Below are positions 1,369 through 43,768 of a DNA stretch of 44,776 nt, piece by piece. Below the pieces are notes generated by a model. The model had not been told where the DNA came from and did no database searches. It saw only the letters and a program-made list of their open reading frames with translations. The stretch is from positions 1 through 44,776 of IMG/VR virus record IMGVR_UViG_2648501797_000002. One strand, written 5' to 3'. Both the position numbers and the translations under genes were made by a program. Each line of letters opens with the position of its first letter. Position 1 is the stretch's first letter. This DNA comes from a virus (taxonomy: Duplodnaviria; Heunggongvirae; Uroviricota; Caudoviricetes).

Positions 1369-1896
1369 TCATGCAGCCTCCAGATTCCCGATCCGCTTTA
1401 ACTCAGCCAGCGATACAGTCGTGATGATGTGTCGCGGGGTGATGTACGGACGCCAGATAAACAGAAGCGAGCCTTTGGGGTTGCTCCGGCGCTTTCCTGT
1501 AACGGATGCCGGAACAAACTGAACACGGCCGCCGGTTATGAGTCTGAGTTCATCAGCTGATTGCATGGCTGAAATAAACCAGCCGGTAGAAATGTCAGCC
1601 GGTAACAACATCACTACGGCCTGAGACTGCGCCCGGGATTGCTTGGCTGCCTTTTCCACCCACGGCCCAATATCGGAATAGGGCGGGTTACACCATATCG
1701 CCCCGTATGACGTCCATTCACTGTTCAGCGAGTCATCCAGCTCAGTGAGGTAGTGAGCGCATAGCGCATTACTCTCAGAGGCTGCAGCATCCAGCCAGAA
1801 GCCAAACTCGCGGTCGAGCGCGTTGAAAATTTCAATCGGTGTTTGCCAGTAGTCACGTTCATTTTTTGGAGTTTTCGACCCGCCGAAATCAGTCAT
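1369..1896 (-). CDS. Phage DNA N6-adenine methyltransferase (Dam-like)
   Basis: NPPY motif (WCNPPYSD) typical of N6-adenine methyltransferases; start placed at the internal ATG with an upstream AGAGG RBS (ORF extends to 1935). Confidence 0.7.
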   Translation of the reverse strand: MTDFGGSKTPKNERDYWQTPIEIFNALDREFGFWLDAAASESNALCAHYLTELDDSLNSEWTSYGAIWCNPPYSDIGPWVEKAAKQSRAQSQAVVMLLPADISTGWFISAMQSADELRLITGGRVQFVPASVTGKRRSNPKGSLLFIWRPYITPRHIITTVSLAELKRIGNLEAA

Positions 1897-1924
1897 TGCG
1901 CACCTCTTTTCGTGTCTGCCTTTC

Positions 1925-2548
1925 TCATGCGGCATGGTCGTGGTTTTTTATGCTGGAAATTTCTTTCTCCAGCTCTTCCAGGAACTTTTTCACTTCGGAC
2001 TCAATCTCATTTGCCAGTGCTTCGTCGAAGTGAATGCGCTTTTTGAAATAGGCGAGGTCTGGTGGTAGACGATCGTCGAAACTAACGAAATCACACCATT
2101 TACGCCCTGTGCACATCATCTGAGCGTGCATCTGCAGCAGGTACTGGCGTTTTGGCTCGCCAGTTTTTAAGGTCTCAAGATGAGTCCAGGTGTTGGGGCA
2201 CTTAATTTCGATAAGCCCATCACCATTAACAAGCCCATCAGGGCTTGCTGCAAATCCTGGTATAGATGGGTGATCGATAAGCCCCACTTCAGTGATTTCG
2301 GCATCGAACTCATTCAGCGCATACATTTCGCGCGCTACCGGCTCGAGTTCTGTTCCGCGCATCATTGCGGCGTTGGAGAAACCTTCTTCAAGCTTCCCGG
2401 TGAGGCGCTGGCAAATCAGCTCGGCCATGTAGTTCTGTCGGCTTGCGGCATAGCCAGACTTGGTTCTGGCCATGACGTCAGCAAGGCGGCTGGCTGTGAC
2501 TTTTCCGCAGCGAGCGGCAAACCATTCTGGGGTGCGTTGTTCCATCAT
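1925..2548 (-). CDS. YqaJ-like recombination exonuclease (lambda Exo-like fold)
   Basis: 207-aa ORF immediately downstream of RecT; resembles YqaJ-type viral recombinase exonuclease (recalled from memory). Confidence 0.75.
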   Translation of the reverse strand: MMEQRTPEWFAARCGKVTASRLADVMARTKSGYAASRQNYMAELICQRLTGKLEEGFSNAAMMRGTELEPVAREMYALNEFDAEITEVGLIDHPSIPGFAASPDGLVNGDGLIEIKCPNTWTHLETLKTGEPKRQYLLQMHAQMMCTGRKWCDFVSFDDRLPPDLAYFKKRIHFDEALANEIESEVKKFLEELEKEISSIKNHDHAA

Positions 2549-3307: not shown

Positions 3308-3598
3308 TTAAAACGGGCAGCCGGTGCGGTGGTCCCAGTCATATTCCGCCTGGGCGTAAGCTACTGCCGAGATGAGATCGTTATATGCCTCGCCAGCTGC
3401 ATCGCTGCGGAGGCCTTCGTATGGGCTTTTGTCCATCGGCACAGAGAAGCGGAACAGGCCTGACGGCTCTTTCGGCAGGGCGTCGATAATTTCCTGCGCC
3501 CGATCGTCAATCCACTTTTGCTTCTCTTCGGTTAGCGACTGTTCAGCCCATTTCCTTTCTTCGATAGCGTCGTATGCGCGGTATGCGTTCATAAGCAC
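3308..3598 (-). CDS. Hypothetical phage early protein
   Basis: 96-aa ORF in the operon. Confidence 0.45.
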   Translation of the reverse strand: MLMNAYRAYDAIEERKWAEQSLTEEKQKWIDDRAQEIIDALPKEPSGLFRFSVPMDKSPYEGLRSDAAGEAYNDLISAVAYAQAEYDWDHRTGCPF

Positions 3599-5524: not shown

Positions 5525-6442
5525 CTACCAGTTCGGTAGCTCACGCAAAGAATACTTAGGCTTTCCATTACCTACCTGAGTGCAGAGGAATTTTGCAATA
5601 ACTTTTTCTCCGCGGTGATCGTTGATAATGTCTGGATTGTCTATGTAATTACTGATTTTCGCTACAAAAATTGATTTAGATTCATCATGCTCCATAATAA
5701 ACTCGCATTGACGTTTATGAGGAAGGGCTCCCAAGAAGCTAACTTCTAATAACTGCAAATCTTCTTTAACACTATCTTTACTTAGCTTGAGGACCGCTCT
5801 TTCAATATCATTGATATTGTTTGCAACAAGCGCTTGGTTGTTATGCCTTAAAGTAAAAGTTGCTTTGTTATCAAATAGTATTTGTATAAATCCACGTATT
5901 TTATCTAAAGCTCGGTCATCCAAATCACTAATCGCCTCAGCTAGACCATCATCGTCTCCCCTTATACTCATTTGCAGGATAGATTGAGTCTGGTTCAGAG
6001 CTTTTTGAACAGAAGATTCCTCATCAAAGTTAAGCGGGGCATCTGGCCTAAATTCCTCAAGTGTAAATCCAAAAGAACCTTTGGCTGTTCCAGTAATCAT
6101 AAGCAAATTATTTTCAAGATTTGGAATTTTACCTTTGGCCGGTAATTTCCCTGAAAATGAAGATGCAACATGAGAAACCGCATCATTAAAGGCGTTAACT
6201 ATTTTGGTTCCGAAATTTGCAGCTATGCCATATGTACCAAGTACAGGGGCTCCTCTAAATGTTAAAGTGGCTTTAACTGGCGGATGCTCATCGATAACAA
6301 TATGAGAAATCTCATCATTTAGCTCATGGAGCCTGCTTTCAAGGCTCATTTTGCCAATAATGTCATCATCAGTAGTGGTTTCTAAAAGAGACAGGATTGA
6401 GTCCCGCTCACTTAGAACGAACAAGTAATCGTCGCGATTCAT
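5525..6442 (-). CDS. Uncharacterized 305-aa protein, downstream partner of the NTase-fold gene
   Basis: AT-rich ORF, 4-nt overlap with the upstream gene; no motif recognised. Confidence 0.6.
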   Translation of the reverse strand: MNRDDYLFVLSERDSILSLLETTTDDDIIGKMSLESRLHELNDEISHIVIDEHPPVKATLTFRGAPVLGTYGIAANFGTKIVNAFNDAVSHVASSFSGKLPAKGKIPNLENNLLMITGTAKGSFGFTLEEFRPDAPLNFDEESSVQKALNQTQSILQMSIRGDDDGLAEAISDLDDRALDKIRGFIQILFDNKATFTLRHNNQALVANNINDIERAVLKLSKDSVKEDLQLLEVSFLGALPHKRQCEFIMEHDESKSIFVAKISNYIDNPDIINDHRGEKVIAKFLCTQVGNGKPKYSLRELPNW

Positions 6443-7026
6443 TGCTCACCTCCTTCTGATAGCATTGTTTCTAAAATGGTTAATGCCTGTTGATCCAGTG
6501 TAATATCTAGAGGAATCTGCAAGAATCCCTTCCATGTAAGATCCCTTCTATGAGACCACATACTGTACCAATATACAGTCCTTTCTACAAGCTGCTCCTT
6601 AGAAACGCCCAGTGACTGGAAGTAAGAATCAACTCTAAACTCTTGCTTTCTCCACTTACCCATATGTGGCACAAACAGATTCGGGTTACGCATAACGACA
6701 TCTTGCTGCGTTTCGTTAAACGCCAAATTAAAAAAAGTCACAACATCAATGTCATTTGGCGGACGTTTTTCAATGAGTTCAACATCTTCTATGAAACTAC
6801 CATCGATCCATTGAAAACCATCCGTTAACCCAGTTTTATTAATTTCTTTACGAAATTTGATGAAACCGAGTAAGATCTCGATCCTTTGTGGGCTTGTAGC
6901 GTACCGCTCTACAAATTTTAATATATCTGTCTTATATGGGGAGCGATAGGCGCTGGTTGGATGCTCCATATCCATTGGTGGGATTACACCAATTTCATTC
7001 CAGTTAGGAATTTCCTGAATCACCAT
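6439..7026 (-). CDS. Predicted nucleotidyltransferase-fold protein (195 aa)
   Basis: GS...DxD pattern (IDGSFIEDVELIEKRPPNDIDVV) consistent with a Pol-beta-type minimal nucleotidyltransferase; AT-rich. Confidence 0.5.
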   Translation of the reverse strand: MVIQEIPNWNEIGVIPPMDMEHPTSAYRSPYKTDILKFVERYATSPQRIEILLGFIKFRKEINKTGLTDGFQWIDGSFIEDVELIEKRPPNDIDVVTFFNLAFNETQQDVVMRNPNLFVPHMGKWRKQEFRVDSYFQSLGVSKEQLVERTVYWYSMWSHRRDLTWKGFLQIPLDITLDQQALTILETMLSEGGEQ

Positions 7027-7336: not shown

Positions 7337-8047
7337 TCACACAAGCCTTAACTTAGTTTCTACGGCCACACCAATGATTCGACAGTTTCCGTTGATGGGA
7401 ACCAATGGCCATTGAGGGTTTAAGCCCTTCAGGTACTTCTGGTCACCATCAATGATCAGTTTTTTGAATGTCGCCTCGTTTGATTCCGAGAGTTTTGCAA
7501 TAACGAGACTTCCGTTGACCGGCTCCCTTCCGGTATCAAAAAGAACATATGTACCCTCTGGTATGCTGAGCCCGACCGGGGCAGTCATGGATTCCCCCTC
7601 GACCAACAACCAGAACGCATCCCCCTGGATGTGAGCGTCTGATTCGAGCCATAGATCGATATCTTTAAGTGCATACGGCTCGCACGCTTCCGACCAATGC
7701 CCAGCCTGAATCTTGCTTAATACAGGGTATTTAATGCCTGGGGTGTACTGGCCTACATACTTGGCATTCGATGTAGCGGCAGCACTCATTGCAGATATTT
7801 CTTTCGCAAGGCTGGGGCTAAAATCAGAGACATCCACCTGGAGGGCTCTGGCAAAAACAGCAGCCACGGCAGCATTAAGGGCATTCCTGCCATTCAAGTA
7901 ATGCCCAACGCCACCCTGAGATATGTCTAGCATGTCAGCTATTGATTGCTGTGTTATCCCAAGCTCTTTTTTCTTGGCTTCATAGAGGGCTTTCAGCCTT
8001 TCTGCGTCAGCGATCTGAGCCGATGTCAGTGTCTTTTTCTTTTCCAT
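7337..8047 (-). CDS. cI: CI-like prophage repressor (HTH plus S24 LexA-like autopeptidase domain)
   Basis: N-terminal HTH (ITQQSIADMLDISQGGVGHYLNG); C-terminal ESMTAP serine motif and FKKL lysine motif like lambda CI; start at ATG 8047, close to the operators. Confidence 0.85.
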   Translation of the reverse strand: MEKKKTLTSAQIADAERLKALYEAKKKELGITQQSIADMLDISQGGVGHYLNGRNALNAAVAAVFARALQVDVSDFSPSLAKEISAMSAAATSNAKYVGQYTPGIKYPVLSKIQAGHWSEACEPYALKDIDLWLESDAHIQGDAFWLLVEGESMTAPVGLSIPEGTYVLFDTGREPVNGSLVIAKLSESNEATFKKLIIDGDQKYLKGLNPQWPLVPINGNCRIIGVAVETKLRLV

Positions 8048-8082
8048 TTTCAAATAGTAATACCAATGCTCTTATTTTAAAA

Positions 8083-14997: not shown

Positions 14998-15134
14998 ACC
15001 AGCTCGCCATAGAACGCATCCGCGAACACTGGCAAAAGCTCCGCCTCTGCCGGCACCGAGGCACCGTACTGGTTGACTACCGAATTTTGAAGAATTTCGT
15101 TCGCATCTATCAGACCCTGGGAGAGACAGCATGA
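14994..15134 (+). CDS. Hypothetical small nin-region protein (46 aa)
   Basis: Hand-translated; ATGA overlaps on both sides. Confidence 0.3.
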   Translation: MNQLAIERIREHWQKLRLCRHRGTVLVDYRILKNFVRIYQTLGETA

Positions 15135-15631
15135 AACTGGAATTAACCAACGAACAGCACCAGTGGATAGATCAGTGGCTCCAGCTTTGGGGCGCATGGT
15201 GCCAGACAGGGAAGATAGACAAGGCGATGATAAATATGATTGCCAAGTTCATGGCCACGGTTGAACCGCAAGTACCATCAAGGCCTGTATGCAGCGATGA
15301 TGATGGGTTGCTGATTGATGCCGTAATCCGGCATTACCTGAAAAACGTAGATGAGAACGCATGGAAGGTAATTTTTGCCTATTACGTCTGCAACTCAAGC
15401 GAGATAAGGATCGCCTCATGGCAGCATGCTGTGAGCAAGCCTCGCCTGATGAAGACGCGCGCCGGAAACCAGTATAAGCACCCGAGCATTTCAACCATCC
15501 GCCGGGAAGTTAAGCAGGTTATCAACGCGGCACTCTTCTGTCTGTACCAACCGCTGCAAAATGCGTTTAACGATCGCGATAGTGTGAGGAAAATTGCAAA
15601 AAATAGTCATAACGTGCTTGCATTTCAATGA
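15131..15631 (+). CDS. Late-gene antiterminator Q (QuuD / phage 82 Q-like family)
   Basis: WGAW...SRPVCSDDD...YYV pattern resembling QuuD-type Q proteins (recalled); followed by promoter-like and terminator elements. Confidence 0.7.
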   Translation: MKLELTNEQHQWIDQWLQLWGAWCQTGKIDKAMINMIAKFMATVEPQVPSRPVCSDDDGLLIDAVIRHYLKNVDENAWKVIFAYYVCNSSEIRIASWQHAVSKPRLMKTRAGNQYKHPSISTIRREVKQVINAALFCLYQPLQNAFNDRDSVRKIAKNSHNVLAFQ

Positions 15632-15805: not shown

Positions 15806-15880
15806 GCATCTGTCGTAGTTTGGTAATTACATCTGGCTTCCAACCAGAAAATGCGGGTTCGATCCCCGCCAGATGCTCCA
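15806..15880 (+). tRNA. Phage-encoded tRNA-Gly (anticodon UCC)
   Basis: 75-nt cloverleaf folded by hand: 7-bp acceptor stem, D-loop with GG, anticodon loop CUUCCAA, T-arm GCGGG-TTCGATC-CCCGC, discriminator U, CCA end. Confidence 0.75.
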
Positions 15881-28719: not shown

Positions 28720-28913
28720 GTCCTGTCCTGGAATCCATGCCAGAAGGCGAGGATTTCCTGATGCGCCCGGTGGATGCCGGGCTTATCCCCTACACCTCCC
28801 TGAAAGATGGATCAGTCGATCTGGCTGATATTGCCCGTATGAATGACTGGCTGGACCTGAAAGCCGATAACGAAAACCGCATAGCGAAATGGAGAGAGGC
28901 TAATGAACGCTGA
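28536..28913 (+). CDS. Tail assembly chaperone -1 frame extension (made as a fusion by programmed frameshift)
   Basis: ORF in the -1 frame relative to 28300-28719, open across the slippery site and ending at the tape measure start. Confidence 0.5.
   Translation: MSERRFPPARKGLDEGVRSGRIDVRRYGPVYHAAAGGAGGRRQPGKFFERTPRQRDAYPAIGPVLESMPEGEDFLMRPVDAGLIPYTSLKDGSVDLADIARMNDWLDLKADNENRIAKWREANER
28668..28680 (+). promoter_or_regulatory. Candidate -1 programmed frameshift slippery sequence G GGA AAT TTT TTG
   Basis: Tandem heptamers G_GGA_AAU and U_UUU_UUG in the zero frame of the chaperone gene. Confidence 0.45.
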
Positions 28914-30819
28914 AACGCTCAAGGACTTTCTGATCTCGCTTGGGTTCAAAGTTGATGAGGCTGGCGCCAGAAAATTCGATGCCGTCGTTGCCGGAACAAC
29001 GCTTAAAGCGATTGAACTGGGCGTCAAACTTGAGGCGGCGGCACTTTCCGTCGTGGCATTCACCGCGAAAATTGCCAGCGGTCTCGACGACCTGTACTGG
29101 GCCTCTCAGCGCACAGGCGCGACGGTGGAGGGCATTAAGCAGATTGGGTATGCGGTTAGTCAGGTTGGCGGCAGTGTCGACGGGGCCCGCGGCTCTCTCG
29201 AAAATCTTGCCAGGTTCATGCGTAACAATCCCGGCGCTGAGGGTTTCCTGAACCGGCTGGGGGTTCAAACGCGTGATGCCAGCGGCAACATGCGGGATAT
29301 GGCGACGATCTTTACCGGCGTCGGCCAGCGTCTTAGCAGCATGCCGTATTACCGCGCGAACCAGTACGCTCAGATGCTGGGTCTGGATGAAAACACCCTG
29401 ATGGCAATGCGTCGCGGTATCGGCCAGTTTAGTGGCGAATACACCGCGATGGCTAAGGCGATCGGCTATAACGCTGATGTGGCCGCCGTCAGCTCCAATA
29501 AATTCATGACCTCGCTGCGCTCCTTTGGGCTGATGGCAGGCATGGCGCGGGATAAAATCGGCTCCAGTCTCGCTGATGGACTTGCTGGCTCTCTCGACAG
29601 GCTGCGCCGCCAGATACTGGAAAACTTCCCGAAAATTGAAGGCGCAATAACCGGTACGGTGAAAGGAATTCTCTGGGCTGGCGAGATGGTAGGCAGGGTA
29701 ATTTACCGCCTCATCCAGTTGGGTCAGGGTATCAGCGACTGGTGGGACTCTCTTGATAAGCAGTCGCAGCAGCTGATCGAACTTATTGGAGCGCTAACCG
29801 CAGCGTGGTGGATGCTCAACCGCGCTATGCTCGCATCGCCTATTACGTGGGTTCTCGGTCTTGCCGCGGCCATCGCTTTGCTATGGGAGGATTACCAGAC
29901 CTGGAAGGAGGGCGGTAAGAGCCTCATCGACTGGGGGAAATGGAAGCCTGAAGTAGACGCAGCACTGAAAATGGTCGGTGACCTGAAACAGACTGTCCTC
30001 GATCTCGGAAAAGCGCTGGCAAAGTTGCTCAATATCGACCCTAAATCCTGGTCTTTAAAATGGGATTTCAGCAACTTCATTACCCAGATGGGTGAGTTTA
30101 GCAAGATGCTGAGTATGATCGGCGACCTGCTTAACGCTATCAAGGACGGTCGCTGGTCTGATGCTGCAAGTATTGGCAGGGCTCTTCTCAAACAAGGCAG
30201 TAACCAGCCTGATGCGCTGCCAGGCGTTTCTGACAGTGCCAATAGCGCAGCTGACTGGATAAAGGATAAGACAGGATTTGACCCGCGCAGCATAGGCCGT
30301 TTCTTCCGTGGCGAGGGGAATACGCTTGCAGATCGCAACAATAACCCCGGCAATATTCGGCCCGTAGGCGGTGGTGGTTTTCGTGCGTTTGGTTCTGCGC
30401 TAGAAGGCTGGGAGGCCATGAAAAACCAGCTCATGCGGTACTTTACTGGTAAAACGACCGGGCGCCGCCTGCAGACTATCATGGATATCGTCAGCACCTG
30501 GGCACCTGCGGCCGATAACAACGATCCTGCCAAATATGCCCGTGATGTTGCTGGCTGGATGGGTGTATCGCCGACGGCAGCATTAAACCTGTCCGACCCC
30601 AATACGATGGCTATGCTCATGCAGTCTATGGCCCGCAAAGAGGGGTATTCGAACTGGAATAGCCCGCTTGCCCATCAGGCTGCTGGAGCGCAGGTGAACC
30701 AGCAAAACACCTACAACATCTATGGCGGTAATGCTCAGGAAATTGGGCAGGAAGTCAGTCGCCGCCAGCTTGATGCTAATGCCAGGGTGCTGAGAAATAA
30801 CCAAACTGGAGCAGGATGA
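28903..30819 (+). CDS. Tail tape measure protein
   Basis: 638-aa protein following frameshifted chaperones. Confidence 0.75.
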   Translation: MNAETLKDFLISLGFKVDEAGARKFDAVVAGTTLKAIELGVKLEAAALSVVAFTAKIASGLDDLYWASQRTGATVEGIKQIGYAVSQVGGSVDGARGSLENLARFMRNNPGAEGFLNRLGVQTRDASGNMRDMATIFTGVGQRLSSMPYYRANQYAQMLGLDENTLMAMRRGIGQFSGEYTAMAKAIGYNADVAAVSSNKFMTSLRSFGLMAGMARDKIGSSLADGLAGSLDRLRRQILENFPKIEGAITGTVKGILWAGEMVGRVIYRLIQLGQGISDWWDSLDKQSQQLIELIGALTAAWWMLNRAMLASPITWVLGLAAAIALLWEDYQTWKEGGKSLIDWGKWKPEVDAALKMVGDLKQTVLDLGKALAKLLNIDPKSWSLKWDFSNFITQMGEFSKMLSMIGDLLNAIKDGRWSDAASIGRALLKQGSNQPDALPGVSDSANSAADWIKDKTGFDPRSIGRFFRGEGNTLADRNNNPGNIRPVGGGGFRAFGSALEGWEAMKNQLMRYFTGKTTGRRLQTIMDIVSTWAPAADNNDPAKYARDVAGWMGVSPTAALNLSDPNTMAMLMQSMARKEGYSNWNSPLAHQAAGAQVNQQNTYNIYGGNAQEIGQEVSRRQLDANARVLRNNQTGAG

Positions 30820-31699: not shown

Positions 31700-32767
31700 A
31701 TGTCTCAGAACTGGATGCGGCACTTCGAATTGCAGTTAGTCGATTCGAAGGGGAACGCTACTGATTTTGGTAGCTTCAAGGTCACTTTTACTATCGACTG
31801 GTTTAACCTCAGCAGCGAAACGCGAGTAGGTACTTTCAAAATCTATAACCTTTCAGCTGATACCGTAAACCGGATCGTCGGTGAGGAATTCTCCCGGATT
31901 AGGGTTATCGCTGGTTACGATGGCATTGCAGCTGACGTTCCCGCCAGTCAGGTAGGCATCGCCAGGATAGTAAACCCCGATGAAGTCGGGCAGATGGACG
32001 GTCGAAATTATGGGCTGATTTTCGACGGGGAAATCCGGTACACCATCACAGGGAAAGATAACCCCGTTGATAGCTTTGTCCTCATTCAGGCGGCTGATTC
32101 TGACCGGGCATTCGCTACCTCGATCACTGCGCAGACGCTGGCGGCAGGCTATACGGTCTCTGACGTCAATGCAGTGCTAATGAAGGACTTCAACGCTAAC
32201 GGGGCCACTGAAGGGAATACCCCTGCCATGCCTGCAACGGTGTTTCCTCGCGGCAGGGTGCTTTTTGGTATGACCCGGCATCTGATGGATAACGTCGCCG
32301 AGCAATGCAAGGCTGACTGGATGTTTGTCGACGGCAAGCGGGAAATGGTGGCGAAAAATGAGGTTGTTCACGAAGCCATTAAGCTGAACAGCGCCACCGG
32401 CCTTGTGGGTATGCCTCAGCAGACCATTGGTAGCGGCGTTAACGTCCGTTGCCTGATTAACCCTAACATCCGCGTTAATGGCCTGATCGAGCTGAATCAG
32501 GCTTCTGTGTTCCGTACCGTGCTGGGGAATAACGATATCGCCATGACGCAAGGGCGTATCACTGACCAGAACAACAACGGAAACATCACAATTGAAGGCA
32601 CGACTGCGCAGCCTGCCAGTATTGCGACTGACGGCGTTTATATTGTCCGTGGCATTATGTACACTGGCGACACAAGGGGCCAGGCGTGGTACATGGATAT
32701 GATGTGTGAAGCGCGTGGCGCGATGGATCTAAAAACTCAATCAGCACTGGAGAGAGGCGCTGGGTGA
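31700..32767 (+). CDS. Putative baseplate hub protein
   Basis: 355-aa ORF in baseplate module; assignment by synteny only. Confidence 0.4.
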   Translation: MSQNWMRHFELQLVDSKGNATDFGSFKVTFTIDWFNLSSETRVGTFKIYNLSADTVNRIVGEEFSRIRVIAGYDGIAADVPASQVGIARIVNPDEVGQMDGRNYGLIFDGEIRYTITGKDNPVDSFVLIQAADSDRAFATSITAQTLAAGYTVSDVNAVLMKDFNANGATEGNTPAMPATVFPRGRVLFGMTRHLMDNVAEQCKADWMFVDGKREMVAKNEVVHEAIKLNSATGLVGMPQQTIGSGVNVRCLINPNIRVNGLIELNQASVFRTVLGNNDIAMTQGRITDQNNNGNITIEGTTAQPASIATDGVYIVRGIMYTGDTRGQAWYMDMMCEARGAMDLKTQSALERGAG

Positions 32768-33096
32768 AAAAATTATTGATATTGATCGCTTTATTTTCTG
32801 CACCGGCACTTTCTGCCATCCAATGTGGCGGTTACAAGCTAACTATTAACGATTCTGAGGGTCTGGTAAGAATCAATGGAGAATTGGTTACCAGTCAAAA
32901 GGTTAAATATCTCGGAAAGAAAGGTGACGAATCAAATGCCAAATGGGATATGGGTATAATGCCTTCCCGTGATGGAAATAATTACGGATTTCAATTCATC
33001 AAGCGGGATGGCAAATCTTGGCTCAATGTTCAACTGCTACAGAACAGTATGGATGCGCCTAAATTGATTGGTTCATATCCATGCAAAACAGTATAA
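32764..33096 (+). CDS. Secreted small protein with signal peptide (moron)
   Basis: N-terminal signal peptide MKKLLILIALFSAPALSA; AT-rich; GTG start overlapping previous stop. Confidence 0.5.
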   Translation: MKKLLILIALFSAPALSAIQCGGYKLTINDSEGLVRINGELVTSQKVKYLGKKGDESNAKWDMGIMPSRDGNNYGFQFIKRDGKSWLNVQLLQNSMDAPKLIGSYPCKTV

Positions 33097-33125
33097 AAAA
33101 GCCCTGAGTTAATCAGGGCTAAAAT
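33094..33125. terminator. Bidirectional intrinsic terminator (AGCCCTGA-GTTAA-TCAGGGCT flanked by A and T runs)
   Basis: Perfect 8-bp stem between convergent genes. Confidence 0.55.
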
Positions 33126-33126
33126 C

Positions 33127-33444
33127 TCACTGCTTAAATATTTGCGATAGAACTATGGCGGCAATGATGAAAACTGCAAGCCTCCACCAATGGATCCCTT
33201 CCCTTTGAGCCGTTGGTTCCTGTTCTGAAAATTCCTCTTCCGATGTAGCTTTTCCAGATTTTTTCCCTGGGCCAACGGTGTATGACAAACCGGATCCCGG
33301 AATTCCAACGGTGGTTTTTATTCCTCTTCCACTTATGTTGGTAGTGGCGCCTTTTGGGCCAATCGACGTACTAACGCCACTCTTGCTGATATTGATTGCT
33401 AGGCCTGGAGCTATGCGTATCCGCTTCCTAAATCTGAAGCCCAT
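33127..33444 (-). CDS. DUF4236-like membrane-anchored protein (moron)
   Basis: N-terminus MGFRFRKRIRIAPGLAINISKSG... with Gly-rich repeats, matching DUF4236 as recalled; C-terminal transmembrane helix; opposite strand to flanking tail genes. Confidence 0.55.
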   Translation of the reverse strand: MGFRFRKRIRIAPGLAINISKSGVSTSIGPKGATTNISGRGIKTTVGIPGSGLSYTVGPGKKSGKATSEEEFSEQEPTAQREGIHWWRLAVFIIAAIVLSQIFKQ

Positions 33445-33531
33445 AGGTATCTCCTGTAGTCAAAAATACTAAGTAATTAAATTTTTATTCTACCCCTCAC
33501 TAAGTGAGGGTAATCATTATCTGGAGAAAAC

Positions 33532-34263
33532 ATGGGCGTATCAAGCCAAACCCGTAGTGGGGCGCTGGCGGAGGTTCTGGCGTCTGAGCGAAAGACGCTT
33601 AGCGAGCAAATGCGCGTAGCACTGCCGGGGATCATCCAGTCATTCGACCCAGAATCTTTGACGGCTGTTGTTCAGCCAGCGATCCGCTACATCGAGCGCG
33701 ACAACGACGGCAACAAAAGCACGAAGGATTATCCGCTGCTGGTGGATGTTCCAGTTGTATTCCCCCGCGGGGGCGGCTGTACGCTCACTTTTCCCGTTAG
33801 CGAAGGCGATGAGTGTCTGGTGATATTTGCCGACCGCTGCATTGATTTCTGGTGGCAAAGCGGGGGTGTACAGGAGCCGGTAGACGGGCGCATGCATGAT
33901 TTATCGGATGCGTTCTGTATCGTGGGCCCGCAGTCGCAGGCGAAGAAAATCGGCGGCATCAGCACTACGGGAGCGCAGCTGCGTACCGATGATGGTTCGG
34001 CTTTCATTGAGGTGGCCGCCGGAGGGGATATCACTGCCACCACCGCCGGCAGCGCGACTATTAACGCCCCGGAAATCGTCCTTAACGGCAACGTGACGAT
34101 CAACGGCAACCTGTCGCAAGGAATGGGTGAGAGAGGAGGCACGGCCACAATGCACGGCCCGGTCACCGTAACCAACGATGTGACAGCAGGCGGTAAGAGC
34201 CTGATGACGCACATGCATGGTGGGGTTGAGCATGGTAACGACAGCACCGGGGGGCCTGAATAA
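33532..34263 (+). CDS. Baseplate central spike protein (gpV / gp5-like)
   Basis: C-terminal Gly-rich beta-helix with His-containing tip (THMHGGVEHG). Confidence 0.55.
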   Translation: MGVSSQTRSGALAEVLASERKTLSEQMRVALPGIIQSFDPESLTAVVQPAIRYIERDNDGNKSTKDYPLLVDVPVVFPRGGGCTLTFPVSEGDECLVIFADRCIDFWWQSGGVQEPVDGRMHDLSDAFCIVGPQSQAKKIGGISTTGAQLRTDDGSAFIEVAAGGDITATTAGSATINAPEIVLNGNVTINGNLSQGMGERGGTATMHGPVTVTNDVTAGGKSLMTHMHGGVEHGNDSTGGPE

Positions 34264-34616
34264 TGCGATACCGACGTGAAGACGATGACGGTGATTACAC
34301 CTTTGGACAGGGTGATGATACCTGGCTGGTAAACTCTCCTGAGGCCGTAGCGCAGGCCATTAAAACGCGATTTCTGCTCTGGTACGGGCAGTGGTTTCTG
34401 GACACCACAGAAGGTACGCCGTGGATTCAGTCCGTTCTGGGTAAGCAAAAGCCGGATACCTACAACCTCGCTATCCGTAAGCGGATCCTCGAAACGCAGG
34501 GGGTTAGCTCAATCACTGCATTTAACACCACCGTTGACGGTACCACGCGCCGTATAACGTTCACAGCAACGGTGGAAACCATCTACGGGACAACCACAGT
34601 AACTTCGGAGGCGTAA
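34263..34616 (+). CDS. Baseplate wedge protein (GPW / gp25-like)
   Basis: 117-aa protein between spike and J-like genes; synteny. Confidence 0.5.
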   Translation: MRYRREDDDGDYTFGQGDDTWLVNSPEAVAQAIKTRFLLWYGQWFLDTTEGTPWIQSVLGKQKPDTYNLAIRKRILETQGVSSITAFNTTVDGTTRRITFTATVETIYGTTTVTSEA

Positions 34617-36582: not shown

Positions 36583-37451
36583 TGGCGACTAACGATTTTA
36601 AACCCTTCGCTACTGGTAGCGGGGCAAACGTATTATCACAGGCTGATTATGAAGCGCTATCTGCACTGGCATCAGGGTTTCTTTCCGGCAAAGCCTCGTC
36701 AGCACAAGTAAATAAAGCACTACGGCAATCCTCTACAATTGCTGCCGTCCTTGCGCAATTCATGGCGGATAGCACAGGAAGCGATGTCCTGGATAATGGA
36801 AACATTGCCACATTACTAAATATTCTCAAGTCTGCACTTAATAATCAGGCAGAAGGACGCCTGCTCCGCATTCAGGTTTTTACCGCTAGCGGAGCATGGG
36901 TAAAAGCTGCTGGCACTAAAAAAGTCAGAATCAAGGCATGGGGTGCAGGCGGAGGGGGTAAGGGGACAGACGTCGCAGGGACTGGTGCGCCTAGTGGGGC
37001 GGGTGGTGCATACGTTGAGGGATTATATGACGTAAGCACCATTAATGGGGCGAATATCGTTATTGGCGCTGGTGGTGCGGCAGTTGCTGCAGGGAGTGCA
37101 GGAAATGGGGGTGATGGGGGAGACACTACCATTACCGCTCTGGGTATCTCTGCTGGTGGTGGTAAGGGCGGAAACTCTGCTGGTAATTCTGCTGGCGGAA
37201 TTCCGGGAGCTCCATCTGTTGGGACAATATTCTCAGTGGCTGGTCAGGGAGGACAGGGAGGATCAGGTGTAAGCCTGGGTGGTGTAGGTGGCGCATCGCA
37301 CAGTAGTTATGGTGGCCTTCCACACGTTAGTTCATCCGGTGATGATGGATTTTTCCCTGGTGGAGGTGGTGCTGGCGCATCATATGACTCAATCGCCAGG
37401 GCATCAGGGAAGGGCGCTAACGGCTATGTCATCATTGAGGAGTACGCATAA
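36582..37451 (+). CDS. Tail fibre protein with glycine-rich C-terminal domain
   Basis: Gly-rich repeats (GAGGGGKG..., GGGKGGNSAGNSAGG...) and C-terminal ...GYVIIEEYA; TAATG coupling to the upstream gene. Confidence 0.55.
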   Translation: MATNDFKPFATGSGANVLSQADYEALSALASGFLSGKASSAQVNKALRQSSTIAAVLAQFMADSTGSDVLDNGNIATLLNILKSALNNQAEGRLLRIQVFTASGAWVKAAGTKKVRIKAWGAGGGGKGTDVAGTGAPSGAGGAYVEGLYDVSTINGANIVIGAGGAAVAAGSAGNGGDGGDTTITALGISAGGGKGGNSAGNSAGGIPGAPSVGTIFSVAGQGGQGGSGVSLGGVGGASHSSYGGLPHVSSSGDDGFFPGGGGAGASYDSIARASGKGANGYVIIEEYA

Positions 37452-37648
37452 TGGCAGGTAATTACGCAGTCATTGAAAGTGGAATAGTTAAAAACATCAT
37501 AATTGCGGAAAGCGGTTATGAATATGATGGTGCTGAACTTATCGAATATCCTGAAAGTGTATTTTGCCAGCCAGGGATGTTTTATAACAAGGCAGACGGG
37601 CTATTTTACGATGATAAAGAATATTCAAAAATAAATAGCAAGAATTAA
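37451..37648 (+). CDS. Hypothetical small protein
   Basis: 65-aa AT-rich ORF coupled by TAATG to the fibre gene. Confidence 0.35.
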   Translation: MAGNYAVIESGIVKNIIIAESGYEYDGAELIEYPESVFCQPGMFYNKADGLFYDDKEYSKINSKN

Positions 37649-37706
37649 GTCACTAAATTACCAGAAAGCAAACTGACCTTATGGTCGGTTTTTTATTGGG
37701 GCGACC

Positions 37707-39857
37707 ATGAGTGAATACGATACCGGCAATCCTGTGCCGTCTGCATCCATGCCTGATGCATGGGATAATATGCAGTCTATTGACAAGTTCGTTAATAGCA
37801 GTGATGAAACCATTACCACACGCACAGGCAAACAGTTAGATACTTTGCATGGCGTTAATGTTAAGGCGGACAACCAGCTAACGCAGCAGCAAGCAGACTT
37901 TGAAACCTCGCAAGAAGAAAGGGATGCTGTAGTTGAGGAAACCAGGCAGAACCTGATCCCTCTGAGCAAGCAATACATGACGCTTGCTGATGCGCAGGCA
38001 GATATCGCAAATATCCCGGTGGGGTCTACCACGTATTACCGCAGTCCTGATGATAGCGCGCTGGCTATTGAAGTAATTAACAATGGTGGCACTCTTGAGC
38101 CCACCGGTAGAAAAATGCCATCTAAGAAGTATATAGATGATGAAATTGCTCCTTACTCCCCTTTGTTAAATATAACCCAAGCATCAGAATTCTTTTCCTC
38201 TGATGAATATAAAGATTCTGGGGTCGAAGAGGCTATATTAGATGAAAATAAAAAAACACTACTATCCAGAAAAGGCGCTGAGTGGTTTTTTCAAAAAATA
38301 ATAGCGGGAGAAATCAGCGCAGATGAATTTTCTGCCGAAATCCTTTCAGGTAATGACATTTTGATTTCCGGGCAGAGCCTTCTTGGAATCGTTCCTTTTT
38401 TACAGGCTTCGACATTTGTCGATATATCTGAATTTTCGGATTCGGGGTATGATTCCGCAACTTTTTCTGAAAACAATAGAATCATTGTTGGCATTAAAGG
38501 GACCACCCTTTATTTTAGCAAAATTGTCGTTGGTGATGCTGTAATTGAAGGAAGCGATTTTACAGAGGTAAAGGGTGTTACTGACGCATTATCACCTCTT
38601 CCAGAGTCAGTAACATTTCTCTCACCTGATGAGTATGCAGATAGTGGATACATTTCGGCATCCACATCTGAAAACCTGGTTGTTATCGAGTCGCTGAAAT
38701 CATCGGACCTGACAAACTCAGGTCATCCTGATTACATTGCATTTAGCGAAGAGAAAGGAGGCTATGAGCAGATTTTCCTGTTTGATCGCGATACAGGTCA
38801 GCAGGTTCGTGTAACCAATACATCCAGTAATGAAACCCTGCCACGCGTTGATGGTGATAAGGTTATCTGGCAATCGGACAGGGAGACTAATCGCGCACCG
38901 GGTGGGCAGTATTATTGCTATATCAGTGATCTGACTGAGCACTCTGTAATGTCCAGGCCGATCATTTGCGGGTGGGGCCATTCAATGGTTGACAACCCCC
39001 GTATGCTGACACGCCTGCAGGAGCTAACCGGATACACGGCCTATAACTTTGGCAAAAGCTCACGCACAAGCGTTGGCACAGCTGCTGCTCAGGGTGGGCG
39101 CAGAGCGTATTACGTTCCAGTTGGCGGCAGCATTCCTGCCAGCGGTTCGGTAACTCTTTCTCCGGCAAACCCGGGGCCACTGAGTTATTTTGCCAACGCC
39201 GCAGCATCGACGCCGTTCCACGGTTCTCTGGCTGGCATTCCAGGCAATTTTGCATGGGATGGAACGAATGCCACATTTACCCGTGATGCATCTGGTGATG
39301 CGGTTAGCGTACCTGTTGCCGTGCCATTCATTTGTGATCCGGTGACCACTGGCGCTATTACCGGAGGCATTCCGGCAGGAACATCTTTCCCTCTTCACCC
39401 TGAATGTATAAATATTTTCTGGATGGGAAGGAATAATATTAGCCAGTCAATGCAGGTTCTCAGCGACACTATTGGTGTAGTTGAATACCTTAAATCTCTT
39501 GGGCAGAAGGTTATTATCCTGCCTGATTTTAACAGCAGTGTTGAGCCCCGTGGATCAGCAGGTTATGCAAACGTCATGTTATCAAACAGCATGATTAAAA
39601 AGAAATACCCTGAGTTATGGTGCGAAATTGATAGTGTTGATATGAGGGAAAACTTCGTAAACAACTATAATCCAGCATATTCTCAGGACGTTTCTGACTT
39701 TGGAAATGATATCCCTCCAACTTCATTGAAGTATGACGGACTGCATCCTAGCCAATCGAAAGAAACATCTAACGCCCCTGAATATGCATTGCAGGCTGGC
39801 GCGGACGTAAACGCTGAATTTATTTACCAGAAATTTCAATTATTAGGGTGGGTGTAA
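37707..39857 (+). CDS. Tailspike/receptor-binding protein with central PD40-like beta-propeller region and C-terminal SGNH/GDSL-type esterase domain
   Basis: C-terminal DGLHPS block-V-like motif and GWGHSM block-I-like motif; central YIAFSE...DGDKVIWQSDRE resembles TolB-type PD40 repeats; AT-rich 5' half. Confidence 0.55.
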   Translation: MSEYDTGNPVPSASMPDAWDNMQSIDKFVNSSDETITTRTGKQLDTLHGVNVKADNQLTQQQADFETSQEERDAVVEETRQNLIPLSKQYMTLADAQADIANIPVGSTTYYRSPDDSALAIEVINNGGTLEPTGRKMPSKKYIDDEIAPYSPLLNITQASEFFSSDEYKDSGVEEAILDENKKTLLSRKGAEWFFQKIIAGEISADEFSAEILSGNDILISGQSLLGIVPFLQASTFVDISEFSDSGYDSATFSENNRIIVGIKGTTLYFSKIVVGDAVIEGSDFTEVKGVTDALSPLPESVTFLSPDEYADSGYISASTSENLVVIESLKSSDLTNSGHPDYIAFSEEKGGYEQIFLFDRDTGQQVRVTNTSSNETLPRVDGDKVIWQSDRETNRAPGGQYYCYISDLTEHSVMSRPIICGWGHSMVDNPRMLTRLQELTGYTAYNFGKSSRTSVGTAAAQGGRRAYYVPVGGSIPASGSVTLSPANPGPLSYFANAAASTPFHGSLAGIPGNFAWDGTNATFTRDASGDAVSVPVAVPFICDPVTTGAITGGIPAGTSFPLHPECINIFWMGRNNISQSMQVLSDTIGVVEYLKSLGQKVIILPDFNSSVEPRGSAGYANVMLSNSMIKKKYPELWCEIDSVDMRENFVNNYNPAYSQDVSDFGNDIPPTSLKYDGLHPSQSKETSNAPEYALQAGADVNAEFIYQKFQLLGWV

Positions 39858-39858
39858 A

Positions 39859-40662
39859 ATGGGTCCGTTTGAGAAACGAAATGGTGTAATTGCCACAACT
39901 GGAGATATTCTTTATCGTGATGGCTCTATAAATAGCGGAACGAAGGGATTAATTTCATGCCATAACACATGGTCTGGCGCTGGGGCAAACCTTGCCGCAG
40001 GAGCGCAGATAAAAAATATGTGCTACGTGAATGACCACGCAACAGCAAACTCAGTGCTTACCGCCGCAGGTGGTGGCTATGCCCTTAATTCAGTGCATGC
40101 TCAAGGCATCAATCTCCCGGCATCAATGATTGCTACATCAGGGATGACAAATTATCTGTATACGTTCTGGCTGAAAGTAACAGGTGCTGCTGCAGCTACT
40201 TCCAACTCATTCCTGGTGGCTCTGACAAATGGCACACCCAGTAACGCAGCGAACACGCTGTTTTGGCTGCGCCCGACATTCTCTTCAACAACTGCCGCGA
40301 GCGCATTGCAGGTGATTAACCACGGAGAGGTGATTAATGCGTACTCATTCCTGTCAGGGCTTTTTGATGGGAATGTCCACCAGGTTGCTGTTGAGCGCGT
40401 AGTTTCTTCTGATGGAACAATGCAGAAATCGCGCCTCTACCTTGATGGCGTACTGAAGTATGAGAGCTCATTCTCAGCGATTGTTGCTTATCCGGCAGCA
40501 ATTACTCTGGCGCGGCTGGGGGATGCTGAAATAACAACGACATCACTCTCGGTGAATGGTGGAGTGTATCGCTGTCGACTAGATGACCTGACGCTAACAA
40601 GTAAAAATGCCTTAGAGATTCTTTCAGATGACATCAACCTGGTTAATGGGCGCTATAGCTAA
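39859..40662 (+). CDS. Hypothetical protein downstream of tailspike
   Basis: 267-aa coupled ORF; Ala/Ser/Thr-rich. Confidence 0.4.
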   Translation: MGPFEKRNGVIATTGDILYRDGSINSGTKGLISCHNTWSGAGANLAAGAQIKNMCYVNDHATANSVLTAAGGGYALNSVHAQGINLPASMIATSGMTNYLYTFWLKVTGAAAATSNSFLVALTNGTPSNAANTLFWLRPTFSSTTAASALQVINHGEVINAYSFLSGLFDGNVHQVAVERVVSSDGTMQKSRLYLDGVLKYESSFSAIVAYPAAITLARLGDAEITTTSLSVNGGVYRCRLDDLTLTSKNALEILSDDINLVNGRYS

Positions 40663-40731
40663 AACAATAGTTTGCTACTGCCGCAGGGATTGATAGCCAC
40701 AACCAGCATTGATCTGCCACCAACTTAAAAT

Positions 40732-40751
40732 TACTGTATATAAAAACAGTG
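40732..40751 (+). promoter_or_regulatory. LexA (SOS) box TACTGTATATAAAAACAGTG overlapping a -10-like TATA element
   Basis: CTGT-N8-ACAG palindrome matching the LexA operator consensus, 17 nt upstream of the ATG at 40768. Confidence 0.7.
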
Positions 40752-40767
40752 TTTATGGGGGGAGATC

Positions 40768-41007
40768 ATGCTTCGACAGTCAGACATCACTGCGGCTTTC
40801 CGCGAGTCGGTTTTGCGCAGTTCCAAGGGGTTCCAGTACCTTCACACCAGAGACTTCGTTACCGCGCTGCGCCGGCGCGGCATCCATTTTTCCGAGGTGG
40901 AGGCGAACTCTTGGATCGCACGCGAGCAGACGTATTTCGTCGATAAGACGCCGGACCATAGCGAAAACAGGCTGTGGATGATGGCCAACATGGGGAGGGT
41001 GATCTAA
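40768..41007 (+). CDS. Hypothetical 79-aa protein, first gene of the SOS-box cassette
   Basis: Strong RBS GGGGGGAG; ends with TAATG overlap into the next gene. Confidence 0.5.
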   Translation: MLRQSDITAAFRESVLRSSKGFQYLHTRDFVTALRRRGIHFSEVEANSWIAREQTYFVDKTPDHSENRLWMMANMGRVI

Positions 41008-43693: not shown

Positions 43694-43768
43694 TGGTGTC
43701 CCCTGCAGGAATCGAACCTGCAATTAGCCCTTAGGAGGGGCTCGTTATATCCATTTAACTAAGAGGAC
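43694..43768 (-). tRNA. argW: tRNA-Arg (anticodon CCU)
   Basis: 75-nt cloverleaf on the minus strand: acceptor GTCCTCT/AGGGGAC, anticodon loop CUCCUAA, T-arm GCAGGTTCGATTCCTGC, CCA end. Confidence 0.9.

Follow-up and report, generated by a model that had tools for sequence, protein, structure and literature searches.

A variable cargo slot beside a nearly fixed gene for a predicted exported protein in the baseplate operon of a temperate myophage

Why are two AT-rich genes on opposite strands found in the middle of a phage baseplate operon? The question is raised by IMG/VR virus record IMGVR_UViG_2648501797_000002, the 44,776 nucleotides (nt) of which were analysed in full and are referred to below as the window. 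Between its baseplate hub and central spike genes lie a plus-strand gene for a predicted exported protein of 110 amino acids (aa), termed here gene X, and a convergent gene for a 105-aa DUF4236 protein. A first-pass annotation, made from the sequence alone, had described the pair as one inserted cargo island. We find that this apparent single island is made of two units, a nearly fixed gene (X) and a true cargo slot, which is a hotspot for cargo and defence genes and is occupied in the window by the DUF4236 gene. The latter is best read as a moron that would be expressed from the prophage and, by analogy with known systems, most likely blocks superinfection at the inner membrane. The features of the region are as follows.

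31700 to 32767, plus strand: baseplate hub gene, the conserved left flank (phrog_196, E=1.7e-83; Pfam E217_GP41, E=1e-5)
32749 to 32757, plus strand: Shine-Dalgarno-like GGAGAGAGG, read from the sequence, inside the end of the hub gene and 6 nt 5’ of the X start codon, GTG
32764 to 33096, plus strand: gene X, 110-aa predicted exported protein (phrog_3443, E=6.7e-48)
33100 to 33120, minus strand: intrinsic terminator of the DUF4236 gene, with a perfect stem of 8 base pairs (bp) and a 5-nt loop (-14.7 kcal/mol, z=-4.2)
33127 to 33444, minus strand: DUF4236 gene, 105 aa (PF14020, E=5.4e-21)
33451 to 33455, minus strand: Shine-Dalgarno sequence AGGAG of the DUF4236 gene, within a conserved TTGACTACAGGAG leader
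33494 to 33510: hairpin CCCTCAC-taa-GTGAGGG, 7 bp, no T-run, where relatives have a plus-strand terminator (-11 kcal/mol, z=-1.2)
33516 to 33544, minus strand: sigma-70-like promoter candidate for the DUF4236 gene (TTGATA, 17 nt, GATAAT; 10 of 12 positions matching)
33532 to 34263, plus strand: central spike gene, the conserved right flank (Pfam spike N-terminal domain, E=3.8e-44, and Apex motif)

Both small open reading frames are real, including the N-terminus that had been quoted for the minus-strand product, and the AT-richness of the stretch between the hub and spike genes is borne out. The G+C content (GC) of the 681-bp stretch is 0.429, the minimum of the late region (16300-37400; mean 0.536, standard deviation 0.027), where equally low values are reached only by stretches of this size starting at 32719-32882. 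Taken gene by gene, GC is 0.39 for X (0.36 at third codon positions, GC3) and 0.47 for the DUF4236 gene, compared with 0.53 for the hub gene, 0.59 for the spike gene and 0.517 for the whole window. Thus, both genes have a base composition unlike that of their flanks, one of the marks of a moron.

The variability of the region was assessed in the best 80 of 282 viral contigs (IMG/VR) encoding a relative of X, retrieved by X similarity. The slot, defined as the interval from the X stop codon to the ribosome-binding site of the spike gene, is 65-1,873 nt long, and across the 79 loci in which X as well as the spike gene was identified, its contents form 36 clusters; in four loci (L022, L028, L031 and L077) it is empty. 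Recognisable occupants include PD-Lambda-1/SNIPE, found in 8 loci (PADLOC, E=3.6e-84), a YafO toxin and its partner (E=4e-17), and an Mrr_cat nuclease with a membrane anchor (E=3e-27). Seven clusters contain a pair of proteins of about 250 and 130 aa, the small one of which resembles HEPN proteins below the cut-off (E=0.0013 and 0.025), and several exported proteins are also found among the unannotated occupants. Examples of slot cargo can be seen in L059 (3407-4636), L047 (3439-4266), L040 (3463-4492) and L026 (2405-3564); in L059, a promoter scan found none upstream of PD-Lambda-1. In the comparison with related phages proposed in the first-pass annotation, slot content differs between otherwise collinear relatives. 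With conserved flanks (hub and X on one side, spike on the other) and variable content that includes known defence genes, the X-to-spike interval has the make-up of a prophage defence hotspot. It is a cargo and defence hotspot, of which no description was found in the literature searched.

The right edge of the slot was examined by comparing the region upstream of the spike gene across 58 distinct loci. In nearly all relatives, with or without cargo in the slot, a strong terminator on the plus strand (ACCCGCC-n4-GGCGGGTTTTTT) precedes the ribosome-binding site of the spike gene by about 20 nt; in one locus with an empty slot, L028, a strong terminator follows X at 3352-3373. At the corresponding site the window has the hairpin at 33494-33510, the fold of which is not exceptional; the predicted DUF4236 mRNA would carry this hairpin at its 5’ end.

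DUF4236 is the commonest occupant of the slot. The allele of the window is present in 15 of the 80 X loci, the others carrying different cargo or, in the four cases above, nothing, a presence/absence pattern characteristic of morons. The converse view is provided by the best 80 of 475 viral loci encoding DUF4236: in 43 of them, the gene lies between X and the spike gene, and in every one of these it is antisense to the late operon. The DUF4236 alleles in the 43 loci are 47-100% identical to that of the window; outside the 13 loci that have the window’s own alleles, X is 34-55% identical and the hub, where present, 44-73%. Three more DUF4236 alleles, found by exact-protein look-up, show the same arrangement. 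The gene is under purifying selection, with nonsynonymous variation (pN) far below synonymous variation (pS).

The DUF4236 identity of the 105-aa protein and its C-terminal transmembrane helix, both proposed in the first-pass annotation, hold. The match to PF14020 scores 75.3 bits against a cut-off of 27 and spans residues 3-56, covering the whole 55-position model. Residues 1-57 are basic (isoelectric point about 12), and in the AlphaFold2 model six short strands in residues 7-57 form a beta-meander, followed by a disordered acidic linker (63-80) and a helix (86-104). The hydrophobic part of this helix (residues 89-103, Kyte-Doolittle 2.71) recurs in 84 of 92 small DUF4236 homologues. Longer DUF4236 proteins, of about 167 aa, carry a fused SH3 domain of periplasmic type, and in two translations of such fusions (L153 and L160) a hydrophobic segment follows the DUF4236 domain; other fusions carry an FtsK-gamma domain. 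Both kinds of fusion fit a topology in which the N-terminus is inside and the protein is anchored by its tail. As judged from sequence and model, the DUF4236 protein is a tail-anchored inner-membrane protein with its basic domain predicted to be cytoplasmic.

The sequences around the gene were examined for signals of its own. The TTGACTACAGGAG leader that contains its Shine-Dalgarno sequence is kept in those diverged alleles that are most closely related to it (L090, L091, L094, L156 and L161). On its 3’ side, the hairpin separating it from X had been described as a perfect bidirectional terminator. The stem is indeed perfect, but the T-run (TTTTTT) is present on the minus strand only, at 33094-33099, where it overlaps the X stop codon; the plus-strand sequence after the stem is AAAAT. 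A terminator scan called 33100-33120 for the minus strand only. Thus, the DUF4236 gene has its own terminator, another mark of a moron, and X has at this place a hairpin that lacks a U-run. On the 5’ side, the promoter candidate overlaps the ribosome-binding site and first codons of the spike gene, and the same promoter-like motif is found at the homologous place in L090, the DUF4236 allele of which is 69% identical.

An exact copy of an 841-bp segment is found in 29 of 5,426 complete Escherichia coli genomes, and the window is a prophage. Its 2.9-kb segment from hub to sheath initiator is 99% identical to that of Wanchaivirus PDP110P2 and close to those of Klebsiella phages GZ7 and RCIP0034; Mulock, which is less closely related, is a temperate myophage whose early genes are lambda-like (PMC6856289). 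Along with O and DnaC-like replication proteins and NinG, the window encodes two regulators:

7337 to 8053: CI-like repressor (Pfam Peptidase_S24/HTH)
15131 to 15631: Q antiterminator (Pfam Phage_antitermQ)

The window is a lambda-regulated temperate myophage with a baseplate of the E217/Pam3 type. Since a CI-like repressor, replication proteins and Q are all present, late transcription should be antiterminated. In lambdoid phages, terminators in the late operon are passed during lytic growth but work in the lysogen. Gene structure, conservation, the changing content of the slot, the predicted folds and topology features and the polarity of the terminator are shown by the analysis; when the genes are expressed, and a function in exclusion, we infer as follows. 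In the lysogen, the late operon would be silent, and a DUF4236 transcript would start at the gene’s own promoter and end at its own terminator. The protein would enter the inner membrane, leaving its basic domain in the cytoplasm, and there may hinder the tape measure of an incoming phage or the entry of its DNA, by analogy with HK97 gp15, P22 SieA and SNIPE. Upon induction, Q-modified polymerase would proceed from the hub gene through X and the hairpin without a U-run, then antisense across the DUF4236 gene and into the spike gene, and this late transcription would oppose DUF4236 expression.

Morons and prophage defence hotspots are known kinds of element, and the present case belongs among them. 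The closest parallel to the DUF4236 gene is the HK97 gp15 moron, the product of which, an inner-membrane protein of the YebO family, is made from the prophage and prevents genome entry in a manner dependent on the incoming tail (Cumby et al. 2012, PMC3594210). The DUF4236 protein is likewise a small predicted inner-membrane protein encoded by a putatively autonomous unit, with GC unlike its flanks, in the tail operon of a lambdoid prophage, and in phage phiCD38-2 a DUF4236 gene occupies the very position of HK97 gp15, between chaperone and tape measure. Unlike in gp15, the membrane helix is C-terminal and follows a 57-residue basic beta domain, and the gene is antisense; the two proteins have no sequence relationship, the only Pfam match of the 105-aa protein being DUF4236, and the exclusion proposed here would be a shared property by analogy only. 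The slot itself resembles the defence hotspots of P2-like prophages and P4-like satellites (Rousset et al. 2022, PMC9122126), in which a fixed site between core genes receives many alternative contents, including known anti-phage systems. It differs from them in belonging to another phage lineage, in lying inside a baseplate operon between hub and spike, and in its bounds, a nearly fixed gene for a predicted exported protein on the left and, in most relatives, a terminator on the right. One of its alternative occupants, in the 8 related loci mentioned above, is PD-lambda-1, or SNIPE, a nuclease of the inner membrane that associates with tape-measure proteins and cleaves phage DNA as it is injected (Saxton et al. 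2026, PMC13190303). SNIPE consists of an N-terminal anchor, DUF4041 and a GIY-YIG nuclease; the DUF4236 protein, of 105 aa, has no nuclease domain.

Outside this lineage, DUF4236 genes are found in the following contexts.

L113, a lambda-like siphophage contig: antisense, between the tape-measure gene and a small exported-protein gene on one side and gpM/L/K/I-like genes on the other
L126: antisense, after the tape-measure gene and a lipoprotein gene
Clostridioides difficile phage phiCD38-2: sense, between chaperone-like and tape-measure genes
Pasteurella phage Pmp2: sense, two genes after the hub gene
L162 and L171: directly after a CI-like repressor gene, on the same strand
Virulent jumbo phages of Brevundimonas and Klebsiella: various positions

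These contexts bear on whether DUF4236 instead serves the lytic cycle of the phage that carries it, for instance in membrane remodelling, lysis timing or the anchoring of DNA or tail components. Its presence in virulent jumbo phages and, in phiCD38-2 and Pmp2, its placement within the structural operon on the sense strand would suit such a role, as would the existence of the FtsK-gamma and SH3 fusions. We nevertheless consider it unlikely: in the lineage of the window the gene invariably runs against the late operon, defence genes can take its place in a slot that can also be empty, it is dispensable and even frameshifted in some alleles, and it follows a CI-like repressor in L162 and L171.

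We turn now to X, which behaves differently. Its GTG start codon shares the sequence GTGA with the TGA stop codon of the hub gene, and no sigma-70-like promoter was found upstream in a promoter scan. The coupling of the X start to the hub stop implies that X is read with the late operon. X lies directly 3’ of the hub gene in all 80 loci selected by X similarity, with hub identity falling to 57%, and the same position in GZ7, Mulock, YP3 and one E. coli genome brings the number of such loci to 84. Among X-bearing loci found via DUF4236, X follows the hub down to a hub identity of 44% (L110), and distant members of the X family (37-40% identity) are likewise placed after the hub. Two homologues that were looked up, one of 115 aa (profile E=3e-23) and one a 292-aa lipoprotein fusion, are both encoded between hub and spike. 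Presence and absence, as expected of a moron, are thus essentially not seen for X, which is present in all baseplate-module loci retrieved by X or DUF4236 similarity.

The signal peptide that had been noticed on the 110-aa protein is well supported. The protein starts with a Lys-Lys pair followed by a hydrophobic core at residues 5-19 (Kyte-Doolittle 2.37), and the predicted signal peptide comprises residues 1-18, with cleavage at ALSA|IQ. A hydrophobic N-terminus is found in 125 of 128 full-length homologues, and 122 of the 128 have an N-proximal and a C-terminal cysteine, corresponding to the invariant Cys21 and Cys107; an AxA site precedes the first cysteine by 2-3 residues across the family. 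The mature part is modelled as an 8-stranded beta-barrel (AlphaFold2; predicted local distance difference test, pLDDT, 82.6), which a Cys21-Cys107 disulfide probably closes. X is under purifying selection, with a ratio of nonsynonymous to synonymous substitution (dN/dS) of 0.11-0.22. From these features, and from the model, X is predicted to be an exported periplasmic protein made with the late operon. A lipoprotein was considered and rejected: Cys21 is preceded by A-I-Q, which is not a lipobox, and lipobox-like motifs are present in only 2 of the 128 homologues. The family is small. A hidden Markov model (HMM) search of 1.8 billion representative proteins gave only 66 X clusters and no tie of X to a known family; among 20 sequences inspected from the X search, 18 were small with a hydrophobic N-terminus and a cysteine pair and 2 were lipoprotein fusions. 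In these two fusions, P0254 (L087, 5001-5879) and P0275, the X-like part forms the C-terminal domain of a lipoprotein of 265-292 aa, and P0254 is encoded between hub and spike.

Could X, in the periplasm, and the DUF4236 protein, in the inner membrane, work together as the two parts of one envelope module? As convergent neighbours with a common 30-nt spacer they might, and the 99%-identical X allele is always accompanied by a 100%-identical DUF4236 gene, even where spike identity is down to 67-68%; DUF4236 is also convergent with a small exported-protein or lipoprotein gene in the two unrelated siphophage loci listed above (L113 and L126). Against this, 65 of the 80 X-bearing loci have no DUF4236 gene, and the alleles do not co-vary: an X of 91% identity is paired with DUF4236 proteins of about 62-70%, and an X of 41% with one of 73%. 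In addition, the predicted location of the DUF4236 domain is the cytoplasm, which would put the membrane between the two proteins. A single two-part module is distinctly improbable on these grounds.

The constant position of X, its start coupled to the hub gene and the want of a sigma-70-like promoter upstream could also be taken as signs of a baseplate structural or assembly protein, with a hydrophobic assembly segment at its N-terminus, in which case only DUF4236 would be cargo. We regard this as very unlikely. The N-terminus has the n-region, hydrophobic core and AxA site, and the protein the invariant cysteine pair, that are typical of periplasmic proteins, and in P0254 and P0275 a lipoprotein signal sequence precedes the X-like part. 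Every locus has an AT-rich X gene, with a mean GC of 0.445 compared with 0.544 for the hub gene. X also assorts independently of its neighbours: in 56 distinct loci, pairwise distances for the tape-measure C-terminus, Dit, plug, hub, spike N-domain and sheath initiator correlate with one another at 0.69-0.90, even across X, whereas those of X track none of these proteins (tape measure, Dit, plug, hub, spike or sheath initiator; 0.23-0.46). Co-evolution of X with a structural neighbour, a possible partner, was accordingly rejected, no correlation exceeding 0.46. Finally, Hafnia phage yong1 has the same module with a hub that is 72.6% identical and no X anywhere in its genome, a non-exported 136-aa protein replacing it; among the deposited phages examined, X is absent only from this one. 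Its AT-richness, independent assortment and absence from yong1 make a stoichiometric role in the virion unlikely, and X, with its conserved signal peptide, is probably not a virion building block, in keeping with what the first-pass annotation had argued from orientation and composition.

Together, these results define X as an accessory gene that is nearly fixed and forms the left boundary of the hotspot. The earlier observations were largely correct and their interpretation half right. An inserted cargo island describes the DUF4236 gene, with its variable slot, the defence genes found there in other loci, its antisense orientation, its own terminator and a promoter-like site; it does not describe X, which always follows the hub and has a coupled start. 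Of the pattern that had been named as speaking against cargo, orthologues at the same position in all relatives and of uniform composition, the first half holds for X in nearly all relatives and the second fails, the gene being AT-rich everywhere.

As for what X does, small exported phage proteins that are encoded next to tail-tip genes and act on the envelope against further infection are known from T5 (Llp), phi80/N15 (Cor) and T4 (Sp). X resembles these, and Cor of phi80/N15, in being a small predicted exported protein encoded beside tail-tip genes, and differs from Llp, Cor and Sp in lacking both sequence similarity to them and a lipobox (the Cor exclusion lipoprotein is mentioned in PMC3594210). 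X would be translated by coupling to the hub in the Q-antiterminated late transcript and so be made after induction; it would be exported by Sec, cleaved after ALSA and folded in the periplasm into its small 8-stranded barrel. Our preferred guess is that it acts there on the envelope, either to keep other phages from entering or to counter tail proteins that degrade the cell wall. A comparison with the PliC/MliC periplasmic lysozyme inhibitors gave neither a family-level sequence match nor a specific structural match. We have moderate confidence in the explanation as a whole, that is, in two separate accessory units, X and the DUF4236 gene in its slot, with the envelope and exclusion roles proposed here. 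That both are instead lysogenic-conversion factors for virulence, stress tolerance or serum resistance, without an anti-phage role and on the model of lambda lom/bor, is the least probable of the readings considered, for although both are AT-rich genes for envelope proteins in a prophage found in clinical E. coli and Klebsiella isolates, the identifiable cargo of the slot is mostly of anti-phage or toxin-antitoxin type and neither protein matches a virulence-factor family in Pfam or NCBIfam.

Several observations weigh against the proposed roles. Neither X nor the DUF4236 protein matches a PADLOC family (PADLOC-DB v2) at E<=0.1 or anything in NCBIfam; profile searches of both alignments against PDB sequences gave chance-level matches only, and fold searches gave only a generic likeness to beta-barrels and beta-sheets. 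The promoter candidate is a consensus match only, one being found where 2.4 are expected in shuffled sequence. In the Klebsiella DUF4236 alleles P0126 and P0127 (L094-L096, 5001-5312), a frameshift after about residue 58 removes the membrane helix. As virulent jumbo phages also have DUF4236, and phiCD38-2 and Pmp2 have it in sense orientation, a role confined to the lysogen cannot apply to the family as a whole. The near-universal presence of X and its translation together with the hub suit a lytic-cycle role at least as well as exclusion. Apart from these points, a Foldseek search against viral structures gave nothing at E<=0.001, Rfam no RNA family in the island, and a full-text search no published function for DUF4236, only a passing mention. 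The frameshifted alleles P0126 and P0127 enter the frame of a 51-aa alternative open reading frame of the window.

A wider reading can be entertained, with considerable doubt: small tail-anchored DUF4236 proteins may be a widespread class of phage genome-entry blockers that engage the tape measure or tail tip at the inner membrane, with X as a second, periplasmic layer in the lineage of the window. This would explain why unrelated phages, whether their hosts are Gram-negative or Gram-positive, repeatedly have DUF4236 next to tape-measure, hub and spike genes. If true, the hub-to-spike interval would be a dedicated envelope-defence cassette inside the baseplate operon. The placement of DUF4236 near tail-tip and tape-measure genes, or after the repressor, makes the hypothesis concrete and cheaply testable. 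More generally, as SNIPE/PD-lambda-1, an Mrr-type nuclease and a YafO pair occupy the slot, its unannotated occupants are good candidates for new anti-phage genes, among them DUF4236, the weakly HEPN-like two-gene pairs and several exported proteins. Phages with the slot are common in E. coli, Klebsiella, Salmonella and related genera.

The genes around the slot and elsewhere in the window complete the description. The spike gene, for which the RefSeq name is membrane-puncturing spike protein, is followed by genes for a sheath-initiator-like protein (34263-34616), a Baseplate_J protein and a wedge protein. A second AT-rich pair (GC about 0.39-0.42) lies at 5525-7026 on the minus strand, downstream of the repressor gene (7337-8053), the classic location of rexAB-type genes; one member encodes a DUF6932 protein that matches the PADLOC candidate system PDC-M63A (E=2.7e-11), the other an unannotated 305-aa protein. 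The product of 1369-1935 (minus strand) matches orphan DNA methyltransferase models (PADLOC oMTase, E=3e-23). Two tRNA genes are present, tRNA-Gly(TCC) at 15806-15880 (plus strand), directly after the Q antiterminator gene, and tRNA-Arg(CCT) at 43694-43768 (minus strand), near the right end and possibly the integration site. The tail-fibre genes at 37200-40800 form a second stretch of low GC (0.43-0.50), consistent with the exchange of host-range modules. In the tape-measure gene (28903-30819), the C-terminal region (…NNNPGNIRPVGGGGFRAFGSALEGWEAM…) has no Pfam match in the window; the tape measures encoded at this position in relatives have an SLT lytic transglycosylase domain.

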